DNA of 64,000 nucleotides, taken from the sequence record PQ356294.1. One strand, 5' to 3'. The DNA comes from Escherichia phage Ec_YwIITB1. Below the pieces are notes generated by a model. The model saw nothing but the letters and a program-made list of their open reading frames with translations, was not told where the DNA came from and searched no databases. A program made the translations under genes and the position numbers. The first letter of the stretch is position 1. Every line of letters begins with the position of its first letter. Below, one piece after another: positions 5,809-59,697 of this stretch.

Positions 5809-7370
5809 ATGACTATCAAAACTAAAGCTGAACTTTTGAACAAATGGAAGCCATTACTGGAAGGTGAAGGTTTACCGGAAATTGCTAATAGCAAACAAGC
5901 GATTATCGCTAAAATCTTTGAAAACCAGGAAAAAGATTTCCAGACAGCTCCAGAGTACAAAGACGAAAAAATCGCCCAGGCGTTCGGTTCTTTCTTAACA
6001 GAAGCTGAAATCGGTGGTGACCACGGTTACAACGCTACTAACATTGCTGCTGGTCAGACTTCTGGCGCAGTAACTCAGATTGGCCCAGCTGTTATGGGTA
6101 TGGTACGTCGTGCTATTCCTAACCTGATTGCTTTCGATATTTGCGGTGTTCAGCCGATGAATAGCCCGACTGGCCAGGTATTTGCACTGCGTGCAGTATA
6201 TGGTAAAGACCCAATCGCTGCTGATGCTAAAGAAGCATTCCACCCAATGTATGGTCCAGATGCAATGTTCTCTGGTCAGGGTGCTGCTAAGAAATTCGCG
6301 CTAGCACACAAACTACTGTAAGTTGGAACCATTTACACCTATTTCTTCCAGGAAACTGGTACTGTATATCTGCAAGCTACCTCTAGTTAAAGCAAATTGA
6401 TACAAGTGCTTCTGACGCAGCTAAATTAGATGCTGAAATTAAGAAACAAATGGAAGCTGGCGTATTGGTAGAAATCGCTGAAGGTATGGCTACTTCTATC
6501 GCTGAACTTCAGGAAGGTTTCAACGGTTCTACCGATAACCCATGGAATGAAATGGGATTCCGTATCGATAAACAAGTTATCGAAGCTAAATCTCGTCAGC
6601 TGAAAGCTGCTTACTCTATCGAATTAGCACAAGACCTCCGCGCTGTTCACGGTATGGATGCTGATGCTGAACTGTCTGGTATTCTGGCTACCGAAATCAT
6701 GCTGGAAATCAACCGTGAAGTTGTTGATTGGATTAACTACTCAGCTCAGGTTGGTAAATCTGGTATGACCCTGACTCCGGGTTCTAAAGCTGGTGTATTT
6801 GACTTCCAGGATCCGATTGATATTCGCGGTGCTCGCTGGGCAGGTGAATCCTTTAAAGCTCTGTTGTTCCAGATTGACAAAGAAGCAGTTGAAATTGCTC
6901 GTCAGACCGGTCGTGGTGAAGGTAACTTCATTATCGCTTCCCGTAACGTAGTTAACGTTCTGGCTTCAGTTGATACTGGCATTTCTTATGCTGCACAGGG
7001 TCTGGCTACCGGCTTTAACACTGATACTACCAAGTCAGTATTTGCTGGTGTTCTGGGTGGTAAATACCGTGTATACATCGACCAGTATGCTAAACAGGAT
7101 TATTTCACTGTAGGTTATAAAGGTCCGAACGAAATGGATGCTGGTATTTACTACGCTCCATATGTAGCTCTGACTCCGCTGCGTGGTTCCGATCCGAAGA
7201 ACTTCCAACCGGTAATGGGATTCAAAACTCGTTACGGTATCGGTATCAACCCATTTGCAGAATCCGCTGCTCAGGCTCCGGCTTCTCGCATCCAAAGCGG
7301 TATGCCTTCTATTCTTAATAGCCTTGGTAAAAACGCTTACTTCCGCCGTGTATATGTTAAAGGTATCTAA
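5809..7370 (+). CDS. 23: Major capsid protein gp23; reading frame broken by several small indels between about 6290 and 6450 in the sequence as given (probable sequencing error)
   Basis: ORFs 5809..6321 and 6450..7370 match T4 gp23 N- and C-terminal parts; intervening residues (TQTTV, VGTIYTYFFQETGTVYLQ, KQIDTSASDAAKLDAEIKK) are found in shifted frames. Confidence 0.9.
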
Positions 7371-7385
7371 TCTTTGACGATTTAA

Positions 7386-7404
7386 GGGACCTTCGGGTCC
7401 CTTT
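7386..7404 (+). terminator. Intrinsic terminator hairpin after gene 23 (GGGACC-TTCG-GGTCCC + TTT)
   Basis: Perfect 6-bp GC-rich stem with UUCG tetraloop and T-run. Confidence 0.65.
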
Positions 7405-7418
7405 AGTTGTTTTTATGG

Positions 7419-55703: not shown

Positions 55704-56375
55704 ATGGCTGATTTAAAAGTAGGTTCAACTGTGGGTGGATCTGTCATTTGGCATCAAGGAAATTTTCCATTGAATTCAGCCGGTGACGATGTACTCTACA
55801 AATCATTTAAAATATATTCAGAATATAATAAACCGCAGGCAGTTGATAACGATTTCGTTTCTAAAGCTAATGGCGGTACGTATTTAAATAAAGTAATTTT
55901 TAATAAAGGAATGACTGTTCCCGGTGCAGGGTCAGCTGTAAACAATACAAACCAGTGCGGTATTTATCCAGGTAATGGCGATGCAGCTACTTTTGCTACA
56001 GCAAATATTGATATTGTTTCATGGTATGGTATTGGTTTTAAATCATCACAGGGTTCAGCAGGTAGAACTGTAGTAATTAACACGCGAAATGGAGATATTA
56101 GCTCAAAGGGTGTAATTGAAGCATCACAAATACGCGCAACTTCATTATCTCCAGTAAATAATTATGACCTTACACGGAAAGATTATGTCGATGGAGCAAT
56201 AAATATTGTTACAGCAAACGCAAACTCTAGAGTTTTGCGTAAAGGTGACACCATGACAGGTAACTTAACAGCACCAAACTTTTTCTCGCAGAATCCTGCG
56301 TCTCAACCCTCACACGTTCCGCGATTTGACCAAATCGTGATTAAGGATTCTGTTCAAGATTTCGGCTATTATTAA
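55704..56375 (+). CDS. 36: Long tail fibre distal connector gp36
   Basis: 223-aa ORF; TATAAATA at 55673-55680. Confidence 0.9.
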   Translation: MADLKVGSTVGGSVIWHQGNFPLNSAGDDVLYKSFKIYSEYNKPQAVDNDFVSKANGGTYLNKVIFNKGMTVPGAGSAVNNTNQCGIYPGNGDAATFATANIDIVSWYGIGFKSSQGSAGRTVVINTRNGDISSKGVIEASQIRATSLSPVNNYDLTRKDYVDGAINIVTANANSRVLRKGDTMTGNLTAPNFFSQNPASQPSHVPRFDQIVIKDSVQDFGYY

Positions 56376-56383
56376 GAGGACTT

Positions 56384-59300
56384 ATGGCTACTTTAAAACA
56401 AATACAATTTAAAAGAAGCAAAATTGCAGGTCAGCACGTCCTGCTGCTTCAGTATTAGCCGAAGGTGAATTGGGTATTAATTTAAAAGACCGTGTACTTT
56501 TTACTAAAGATGACCAAGGAAATATTATTGATCTGGGTTTTGCTAAAGGCGGTAGCATTGACGGGAATGTTATTCATATAGGAAACTATAATCAAACTGG
56601 TGATTATACTTTAAATGGCACCTTCACTCAGACAGGTAATTTTAATTTAATCGGTATTGCTCGAGTAACTCGCGATATTATTGCCGCCGGGCAGATTATG
56701 ACCGAAGGCGGAGAACTTATTACAAAAAGTTCAGGTACATCACATGTTCGTTTTTTCGATAGCAATAGCCGCGAACGCGGAATCATTTATTCACCGGCTA
56801 ATGATGGATTAACTACACAAGTACTTAATATCAGGGTTCAAGACTACGCCGCTGGTAGCGAAAGCACCTATGCATTTTCAGGCAATGGCTTATTTACTTC
56901 ACCTGAAGTATCAGCATGGAAATCTATGTCAACTCCTCAGATTTTGACCAACAAAGTCATTACTAATAATAAATCTACAGGTGATTATGACATTTATTCG
57001 ATGGCAGATAATGTTCCACTGTCTGAAAGCACTACTGCTATTAATCATCTCCGTGTCATGCGTAATGCAGTCGGTTCTGGCATTTTCCATGAAGTTAAAG
57101 ATAATGATGGAATAACTTGGTACAGCGGAGATGGGCTAGACGCTTATCTTTGGTCATTTACATGGAGCGGCGGAATTAAATCGAGTCACTCAATTTCTAT
57201 CGGTTTAACACCTGGCAATAAAGATTATTCAATACTAGGACCATCTAGTATTGCTTTAGGGGATAATGATACTGGATTTAAATGGCACCAGGATGGATAT
57301 TATTTCAGCGTCAATAATGGAACGAAAACATTTTTATTTAGTCCTAGCGAAACAACTAGCCTAAGAAAATTTGTAGCTGGATATTCTACTAACGGAACCG
57401 ATTTAACTACTCCTCCTACTGAAAACTATGCTCTCGCTACTGTTGTTACATATCATGATAATAACGCGTTTGGAGATGGTCAGACTCTTTTGGGATATTA
57501 TCAAGGCGGTAATTATCATCATTATTTCCGCGGTAAGGGTACTACAAACATTAATACTCACGGCGGTTTGTTAGTTACTCCAGGTAATATTGATGTTATT
57601 GGCGGTTCTGTTAATATAGATGGTAGAAATAATTCTTCTACACTAATGTTTAGAGGTAACACAACTGGTAGTAGTTCAGTTGATAATATGACAATTTCCG
57701 TATGGGGTAACACGTTTACTAATCCTAGTGTAGGTAATCGTAAAAATGTCATGGAAATTTCTGACGCAACTAGTTGGATGAGCTATATTCAAAGACTTAC
57801 TACCGGTGAAGTAGAAATGAACGTTAACGGTTCATTTGAATCATCTGGTGTTACTGCTGGAAATAGAGGAGTTCACACAACAGGTGAAATTTCATCTGGG
57901 GCCGTGAATGCGCTTCGCATTTGGAACGCAGATTATGGTGCCATTTTCCGTCGTTCAGAAAACAGTCTTCATATTATTCCAACTGCCTATGGTGAAGGCA
58001 AAAATGGCGATATCGGTCCACTTCGTCCGTTTAGTATGTCTTTAGATACAGGTAAGGTTGTTATTCCTGACCTAGATTTGAGTCATACAACTTTTGCTGA
58101 AAATGGTTTTATTAAATTCGGTGGGCATGGTGCTGGTGCCGGTGGTTATGATATTCAATACGTCCAAGCAGCTCCTGTTTTCCAAGAAATTGATGATGAC
58201 GCGGTAAGTAAATATTATCCTATTGTTAAGCAGAAATTCTTACAAGGAAAAGCTGTTTGGTCTTTAGGCACTGAAATTAATTCCGGGACTTTTGTTTTAC
58301 ATCATTTAAAAGAAGATGGTTCACAAGGCCATACATCAAGATTTAATGCTGACGGTACAGTTAATTTCCCTGATAATGTTCAGGTTGGCGGTGGTGAAGC
58401 TACTATTGCTCGAAATGGTAATATCTGGTCTGATATTTGGAAATCGTTTACTTCAGCAGGAGACACTACAAATATTCGTGATGCAATAGCTACTCGTGTT
58501 TCTAAAGAAGGCGATACGATGACCGGTAAGTTGACTTTATCTGCTGGAAATGATGCCCTTGTTTTAACTGCAGGCGCGGGTGCTTCATCGCACATCCGTA
58601 GTGATGTAGGTGGTACAGGTAACTGGTATATAGGCAAAGGCGGCGGCGATAATGGTCTAGGTTTTTATAGTTACATTACACAAGGCGGTGTATACATGAC
58701 AAATAACGGCGAAATATCGCTTTCTCCTCAAGGTCAAGGAACATTTAATTTTAATAGAGACCGCCTTCATATAAACGGTACACAATGGGTTGCGCATAAA
58801 TCTGGCGCCTTTGGTGACCAATGGGGTTTAGAAGCTCCGATATTTGTAGATTTTGGATCCGTCAGCAATGACTGCTATTATCCTATTATTAAAGGAAAAT
58901 CTGGTATTACTAACGAAGGATATTTTTCCGGCGTAGATTTTGGTATGCGACGCACTACTAATAACTGGGCGCAAGGTATTATTCGTGTAGGTAACCAGGA
59001 AAATGGTTCTGACCCGCAAGCTGTATATGAATTCCACTATAATGGAACTCTGTTTGTTCCTAACATGGTTCAAACTGGAGCAAGATTATCAGCTGGCGGT
59101 GGTGACCCGGTGTGGACTGGGCCATGTCTTGTTATTGGTGATAATGATACTGGTTTAGTCCATGGCGGTGATGGCCGAATCAATATGGTTGCCAATGGTA
59201 TACATATTGCAAACTGGGGCGCAGGCTATCAATCTCATCCTGGGCTTTGGGATTCAACCGGTGCTTTTTGGACAGAAGTTGGAAGAGCTATCGTTTCTCA

Positions 59301-59697
59301 TGGGCATCTCGTTCAGGCAAATGATAGTTATTCAACGTTTGTCCGCGATGTTTATGTCCGTTCTGATATTCGCGTTAAAAAAGACCTCGTTAAATTTGAA
59401 AATGCTTCTCAGAAGCTTTCTAAAATTAACGGTTACACTTATATGCAGAAGCGAGGCCTGGATGAGGAAGGTAATCAGAAATGGGAACCTAACGCCGGTT
59501 TAATTGCTCAAGAAGTTCAAGCTATTTTACCAGAATTAGTTGAAGGTGACCCTGATGGTGAAGCTTTACTTCGTTTGAACTATAACGGTGTAATTGGTTT
59601 AAATACAGCTGCAATCAATGAGCATACCGCAGAAATTGCAGAACTTAAATCAGAAATCGAAGAACTTAAAGCATTAGTTAAATCATTGTTAAAATAA
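56384..59697 (+). CDS. 37: Long tail fibre distal subunit gp37, T2-type with C-terminal intramolecular chaperone domain; apparent frameshift at about 56432 after codon 16
   Basis: ATG at 56384 encodes [16 protein letters not shown] then stops; continuation (…[19 protein letters not shown]...) is in another frame and runs to 59697 (ORF 56470..59697). Confidence 0.85.

Follow-up and report, generated by a model that had tools for sequence, protein, structure and literature searches.

The 64,000-nucleotide (nt) stretch of the Escherichia phage Ec_YwIITB1 record (PQ356294.1) analysed here, hereafter the window, carries broken reading frames in six genes: 23 (major capsid protein, gp23), hoc, nrdB, frd, frd.2 and 37 (distal long tail fibre, gp37). 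We conclude that these disruptions are most probably artefacts of building the deposited sequence, and not mutations of a living phage. The lesions have a hybrid structure in which most join pieces of different alleles out of register, they lie at sites that are multi-allelic among related phages, and the window contains long blocks exactly identical to Shigella phage pSs-1.

Megablast placed the window in the genus Tequatrovirus (T4-like phages), with best whole-segment identities of only 95-97%. It is colinear with pSs-1 (NC_025829) and ends, in the alignment, at the final base of the pSs-1, sb2, sb3 and sb4 records; because these end points coincide, the window makes up the closing 64 kb of a genome linearised in the same way as pSs-1. 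Four genomes, pSs-1, sb1, KNP5 and Ec_MI-02, were used as a comparison panel; at about 96% identity to them, the phage behind the record is a genuine Tequatrovirus in its own right. Within genes, codon position 3 takes 1602 of the 2093 substitutions relative to pSs-1 (77%), and the changed codons comprise 1516 synonymous and 413 non-synonymous ones. Given this strong third-codon bias, the divergence from pSs-1 reflects real evolution and the bases have on the whole been called well; a widespread failure of base calling, for instance at modified cytosines, was rejected on the same grounds. Conserved core genes differ from pSs-1 by 2-4%. Exact protein look-ups in the protein and contig collections gave no match for gp36 or for eight of ten window proteins, and the two that did match are widely shared.

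Frames were checked by projecting the 88 annotated gene models of pSs-1 onto the window, which located breaks in the six genes listed in Table 1. This bears out the original prediction, made from the DNA alone, that genes 23, hoc, nrdB, frd and 37 are interrupted, together with a pair of open reading frames (ORFs) at 46565-46950 that corresponds to frd.2. The positions proposed at that stage were right to within about 10 nt (for nrdB, 40994 had been given and 41004/41005 was found), but the second frd.2 site, at 46908/46909, had been missed. The description of the lesions as single-nucleotide in scale does not stand, as they are mostly larger, block events of 1-10 nt: -1 in hoc, -4 in nrdB, -4 in frd, +2 in gp37, +1 and +2 in frd.2, and in gp23 either -10/+4/+2 relative to one allele family (A-type, see below) or -6/+2 relative to another (B-type), for a net change of -4. 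The effect of repair was assessed in five genes, gp23, hoc, nrdB, frd and gp37, and in each of them a single local repair restored the canonical full length with no further stops; no downstream decay was seen in these five repaired ORFs. Two further differences from the pSs-1 models, in 24.3 (also seen in sb1) and in cd.4, are due to the state of pSs-1 itself or to shared length polymorphism.

Table 1. Genes of the window with broken frames, and the places where the frame is lost (aa, amino acids).
Feature	Position	Strand	Lesion or state
Gene 23, major capsid protein	5809-7370	+	Split into a 170-aa ORF and a 306-aa ORF
gp23 lesion cluster	6295-6393	+	Joins at 6299/6300 and ~6321; further +2 at 6381-6393
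hoc, dispensable head decoration protein	10357-11786	-	-1 nt at 10833-10837
nrdB, intronless	40324-41498	-	-4 nt and adjacent substitution at 41004/41005
frd, dihydrofolate reductase	45435-46012	-	-4 nt at 45685/45686
frd.2	46565-46957	-	+1 at 46908/46909, +2 at 46773/46774
Gene 37, distal long tail fibre	56384-59697	+	+2 nt at 56431-56435, codon 17

The structure of the lesions is the most informative evidence. In gp37, hoc, nrdB and at both frd.2 joins, the prefix of one allele is followed, out of register, by the suffix of another. At the gp37 site, pSs-1, KNP5 and Ec_MI-02 read GCAGG--AGCACG and sb1 reads GCAGGTCA--ACG, while the window reads GCAGGTCAGCACG: it has the pSs-1 allele plus a TC insertion without the compensating GC deletion, that is, half of the change towards the sb1 allele. 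Removal of GC yields a protein of 1103 aa, and the site has an in-frame length in 5/5 IMG/VR contigs. Similarly in hoc, pSs-1 and Ec_MI-02 read AC-GGATGC, sb1 and KNP5 read ACTGGA-GC, and the window reads AC-GGA-GC, with no T at either of the two alternative T positions; addition of one T restores an ORF of 476 aa. A tandem duplication of TTATGA, intergenic and private to the window, lies 3' of hoc (10345-10350).

In nrdB, the window reads ACTCG----TGGCAG (ACTCGTGGCAG), KNP5 reads ACTCGTGAATATCAG, and the nearest alleles, those of sb1, RB51, RB68 and others, read ACTAGATATTGGCAG. The prefix ACTCGTG, from which T4 departs at a single base, is of the KNP5 type and the suffix GCAG of the pSs-1 type, the two meeting at a shared TG with a shift in register of 4 nt. 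The segment spans 165 nt in all ten listed matches, as against 161 nt in the window, and restoring the 4 nt gives a product of 392 aa. The lesion lies about 177 nt upstream of the insertion site of the T4 nrdB intron. A homing-endonuclease scar was considered here and set aside; the window is devoid of the seg, mob and intron endonuclease genes of T4. When the surrounding region (40324-45244) is compared with T4, both nrdB and td are intronless, and the mobile elements I-TevI, I-TevIII, mobE, segD and segE are missing.

The frd.2 gene presents the same kind of structure at larger scale. A three-way alignment resolved a pSs-1-type flank, a patch of the HY01 type (46774-46908) and a second pSs-1-type flank: the sequence is exact to pSs-1 through ...GATACAT, then becomes HY01-type, and is again pSs-1 from GCGCTAACGG... 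onwards. The patch is 98.6% identical to HY01 over 141 nt without any indel, and about 100 phages share this allele; the 155-nt flank (46620-46774) and the 49-nt 5' flank match pSs-1 at every position, and HY01 is very different there. The patch stops where the HY01-type and pSs-1-type alleles cease to be alignable, and both of its joins are out of register.

In gp23, the gene measures 1562 nt (modulo 3 = 2) as against 1566 nt in pSs-1, T4 and Killian. Two allele families can be distinguished, A (T4, Killian, pSs-1) and B (RB27, T-01, PYps32T), and the window shows a B-type context that holds an out-of-phase piece of the A type (T4/pSs-1 type), GCTAGCACACAAACTACTGTA. The best of 653 database matches to the 161-nt segment containing the lesions is only 86% identical, the flanks reaching 97-100%, and the segment spans 165 nt in all 25 listed matches. 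Putting the allele of phage T-01 in place of 6289-6413 produces an intact gp23 ORF of 521 aa. The gene is annotated as one coding sequence (CDS) in Killian, T-01, PYps32T, RB27, pSs-1, KNP5 and Ec_MI-02, and as two CDSs in sb1. A plain splice of T4 itself into a B-type allele was discarded, as T4 has ACCACAGTA and the window ACTACTGTA.

In frd, the lesion is a clean loss of TCTG (coding strand) from the CAATT[TCTG]GTTCGCC of EPIMAM01 and RB3, situated within a patch of about 100 nt of the RB3/EPIMAM01-type allele. With the 4 nt restored, the product has 193 aa, of which 187 are identical to those of EPIMAM01. Both copies of TTTCTGG present in the EPIMAM01/RB3 frd are altered in the window, one by the 4-nt deletion and the other by a G-to-T change (45700-45712, coding strand TCTGTCGACG) that replaces Gly by Val and creates GTCGAC; near the lesion there are also two further amino-acid replacements private to the window, Tyr to Cys and Ile/Val to Met. 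Together, the altered repeats and the private changes suggest a locally low-quality stretch.

The location of the lesions follows the variability of the panel. We defined a multi-allelic site as one where the four panel genomes differ mutually at at least 3 of 7 adjacent columns; such sites make up 3.6% of the window, and 6.2% once a tolerance of 2 nt is allowed. Five of the six lesion loci fall within 2 nt of a multi-allelic site (binomial P ~5e-6, computed on alignment-placed lesion positions that may have been drawn towards variable columns), and at the sixth, frd.2, the lesions are found at the borders of the divergent patch. Accordingly, the earlier view that the lesions are set in highly conserved sequence is correct for the wider flanks, which are 97-100% identical to relatives, but fails close to the breaks, where 5/6 loci lie in locally hypervariable, multi-allelic spots.

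At most lesion loci, one of the partner alleles is of the pSs-1 type. Exact identity to pSs-1 also extends over three long runs rich in panel polymorphism: 10993-11371 in hoc (107 panel-polymorphic columns), 56482-58697 (+) in gp37 (2216 nt, 432 columns, starting about 50 nt past the lesion) and 60147-60535 in gp38 (137 columns). Among 235 records, only pSs-1 and sb3 match the gp37 block at 100%, the next best reaching 96.5%. These stretches of hoc, gp37 and gp38 are either the product of a very recent module exchange or sequence derived from a reference.

A chimeric consensus could have arisen in the following way. At a few hypervariable spots, the phage's own allele would differ from the pSs-1-type one by a block substitution or a divergent patch, and the two versions would have been merged there through sequence alignment or contig joining. 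An aligner would encode such a difference as an insertion paired with a deletion, of which only one was applied, or else the join may have been made at a chance microhomology of 1-5 nt. In either case, the result would be a hybrid 1-10 nt too long or too short, and pSs-1-type sequence may have been retained verbatim where the phage's own allele was unalignable. From this we infer either a consensus or scaffolding step guided by pSs-1 as a reference, or a mixed sample, with a pSs-1-like phage in it as well, whose reads or contigs were merged.

Several observations, beside the possible influence of alignment on lesion placement, weigh against this explanation or restrict it. In gp23, the prefix-plus-suffix pattern is only approximate: the A-type piece differs from pSs-1 at 2 of its 21 nt, and each join needs an extra 1-nt change, so that two pieces simply spliced together do not account for it. 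In frd, the lesion is a deletion inside a single allele, of the RB3/EPIMAM01 type, and does not coincide with an allele switch. Exact runs in the tail-fibre genes are likewise shared by pSs-1 and KNP5, and the exact pSs-1 blocks of the window in these genes could come from recent natural recombination. Finally, a 76-nt insertion absent from pSs-1 was recovered correctly, and so were patches of alt, of gp36 and of the C-terminal part of gp37 that diverge strongly but stay in frame. A plain pile-up of reads on pSs-1 is therefore unlikely, and this argues for de novo contigs followed by some alignment-based merging.

Length errors in homopolymers left in an unpolished consensus, for example from long reads, had been put forward as the cause of the lesions, several of which were thought to lie in short homopolymers; 454 or Ion Torrent data would be another source of such errors. 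The window contains 1189 runs of at least 4 nt, 395 of at least 5 nt and 70 of at least 6 nt, and such errors would be spread genome-wide and be commoner in longer runs, a pattern not seen over the 1189 runs. Only 4 of these differ in length from all four panel genomes, at 8760, 32061, 47328 and 63916, and all four are intergenic (T6, T5, A5 and, at 63916-63919, the loss of TC after T4); the other 1185 match at least one panel genome, including the 70 runs of at least 6 nt. None of the nine lesion events lies inside a run of at least 4 nt, and two touch a 3-nt run. The four private runs, a G4-to-G3 change at 61912 in arn.1 and the third gp23 lesion, which can partly be written as AA to AAA, speak in favour of such miscalls; on the other hand, the gene-breaking lesions lie at allele-type junctions, their sizes (-4, -4, +2, -10/+4/+2, +1/+2) include a sole -1, at CAC^GGA, and the third-codon bias of the substitutions indicates accurate base calls. 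We thus regard homopolymer miscalls as a highly improbable cause, the idea of consensus error itself being retained.

That idea is supported by the fact that essential genes are hit, that one repair restores each of the five genes assessed, and that no independent sequence reproduces the lesions. Genes 23 and 37 are essential in T4, as established by amber-mutant genetics, while growth in the laboratory does not require hoc, frd, nrdB or frd.2. As had been foreseen, two essential genes are among those broken, and for this reason a viable phage cannot carry the lesions. The opposite case, in which the lesions are real and belong to a defective, laboratory-adapted or non-clonal stock whose broken essential genes are complemented in trans, would be reached through mixed infection of a pSs-1-like phage and a second T-even phage, with heteroduplex loops repaired patchily or, for example, templates switched at microhomologies. 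It fits the dispensability of hoc, frd, nrdB and frd.2, each of which could have been lost singly, and the nature of the window as a natural mosaic with many in-frame allele patches; moreover, independent repair of two close heteroduplex loops might leave the half-applied pattern of hoc and gp37. However, a pseudogene or defective-phage origin predicts damage to dispensable genes only, whereas gp23 and gp37 are broken too, and as the same kind of lesion breaks these two genes the defective-phage reading is unparsimonious. A genome lacking both could not dominate a lysate, each defective recombinant would be rare, and six out-of-register junctions would have to meet in one consensus. Nor does the window hold a second copy of gene 23 or gene 37, and the five repaired genes are free of downstream decay; past its lesion, gp37 is 100% pSs-1 for 2.2 kb. 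Independent occurrence of the lesions was not found among IMG/VR k-mers or gp37 contigs: none of the six lesion-spanning k-mers had an exact match in IMG/VR, a weak test in that the intact frd allele used as a control also found none (T4-type contigs being few), and listed database relatives keep the in-frame length at gp23, gp37 and nrdB. We consider real lesions in such a stock improbable, and very improbable the specific proposal that the hybrid junctions are real molecules from a mixed infection, retained in a non-clonal lysate by complementation; were the latter true, the window would record an episode of error-prone homeologous recombination among T-even phages.

It could also be supposed that the frames are broken in the DNA only, and that the proteins are restored by programmed recoding, through ribosomal frameshifting or a translational bypass as in T4 gene 60, the one bypass known in T4-type phages. 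Indeed, the frame-shifted segments retain homology in alternative frames. Nevertheless, gp23 would require three shifts within 100 nt, across in-frame TAA codons, the frame-shifted stretch of frd.2 is full of stops in the entry frame, and the corrections needed (-2, +1, +4, +4) fall in contexts that share no signal. In the close relatives checked, a single frame encodes these genes at the lesion sites, with the exception of gp23 in sb1 and its two CDSs. Recoding is accordingly the least probable of the explanations weighed here, and we retain errors in building the consensus as the most probable origin of the six breaks.

Not all length differences from pSs-1 are of this kind. Clusters of indels that are not multiples of three in alt (25682-25807), gp36 (55939-55957) and gp37 (59073-59084) were examined as further lesions and rejected, being natural in-frame alternative alleles: the corresponding divergent patches (alt 25658-25832, gp36 ~55940-55960 and the gp37 C-terminus ~59070-59090) are in frame and homologous at the protein level, or equal to the KNP5 allele. 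The window has two full-length alt paralogues (23016-25073 and 25077-27134), and T4 one alt plus the remnants alt.-1 and alt.-2. The 76-nt insertion (14529-14604) is intergenic, between uvsY.-2 and uvsY.-1, and absent from pSs-1, sb1, KNP5, Ec_MI-02 and T4. Its interpretation as a mis-join duplication was ruled out, as it represents a natural allele found in 75 phages and is 99% identical in HY03, SG1, Sf23, KIT03 and about 30 others. The insertion holds an 11-bp hairpin, UUAAUCCGUGU...GCGGAUUAA, with a folding z-score of only -0.7.

The only coding length change beside a mononucleotide run concerns an arn.1-like ORF (61892-62010), where the G4-to-G3 change at ~61912 is window-specific with respect to pSs-1, sb1, KNP5 and Ec_MI-02. 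It brings this small ORF, which precedes arn, into frame with the latter and gives a fused ORF of 128 aa (61624-62010); arn (61624-61902) retains its own ATG despite the fusion.

These results bear on the use of the record, which is unsafe as it stands for gene content, capsid and tail-fibre protein sequences, pseudogene counts and host-range inference. In particular, it would be wrong to take the lesions in hoc, frd and nrdB as adaptive gene loss, and parts of hoc, gp37 and gp38 may belong to pSs-1 and not to the phage itself, which would mislead comparisons of receptor binding. More generally, frameshifts in draft phage genomes are not always homopolymer errors, and their clustering at multi-allelic sites points to reference bias or a mixed sample; polishing of homopolymers with short reads would leave such breaks unfixed.

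Compared with known systems, the window resembles genomes affected by the homopolymer indel errors of long-read or flow-based sequencing in having small indels in conserved genes of an otherwise good assembly, but differs from them in that its lesions are outside homopolymers, mostly of 2-10 nt, and number six as against 1189 runs. It also resembles the natural mosaicism of T-even phages, generated by homologous recombination and by homing-endonuclease-driven gene conversion, since its patches in frd, frd.2, alt, gp36, gp37 and hoc match different phages. Natural patches elsewhere in the window keep both register and frame, whereas register is lost at the six lesions; in addition, none of the T4 homing-endonuclease genes is present in the window.

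Among close relatives, Shigella phage sb1 (PQ666539) offers a parallel, its annotation showing splits or truncations of gp22, gp23, gp51, gp27, gp29, gp48, alt, rnlA, nrdA, gp34 and gp35; the window differs in having fewer breaks, confined to allele-junction sites. sb1-sb4, which share their record end point with pSs-1, were assembled de novo with SKESA from Illumina reads (PMC11993411); the genome analysed here is not mentioned in that paper. Small defects are present in pSs-1 as well, where 24.2 (33 aa versus 92) and cd.4 (43 aa versus 66) are truncated. Finally, with respect to the reference-biased or chimeric consensus errors of draft viral genomes, the 76-nt insertion and several divergent patches are resolved in the window, which sets it apart from a plain pile-up; it shares with them lesions at complex multi-allelic sites where alleles are joined out of register, possibly blocks of reference sequence kept in unalignable DNA, and a record linearised at the same base as pSs-1.

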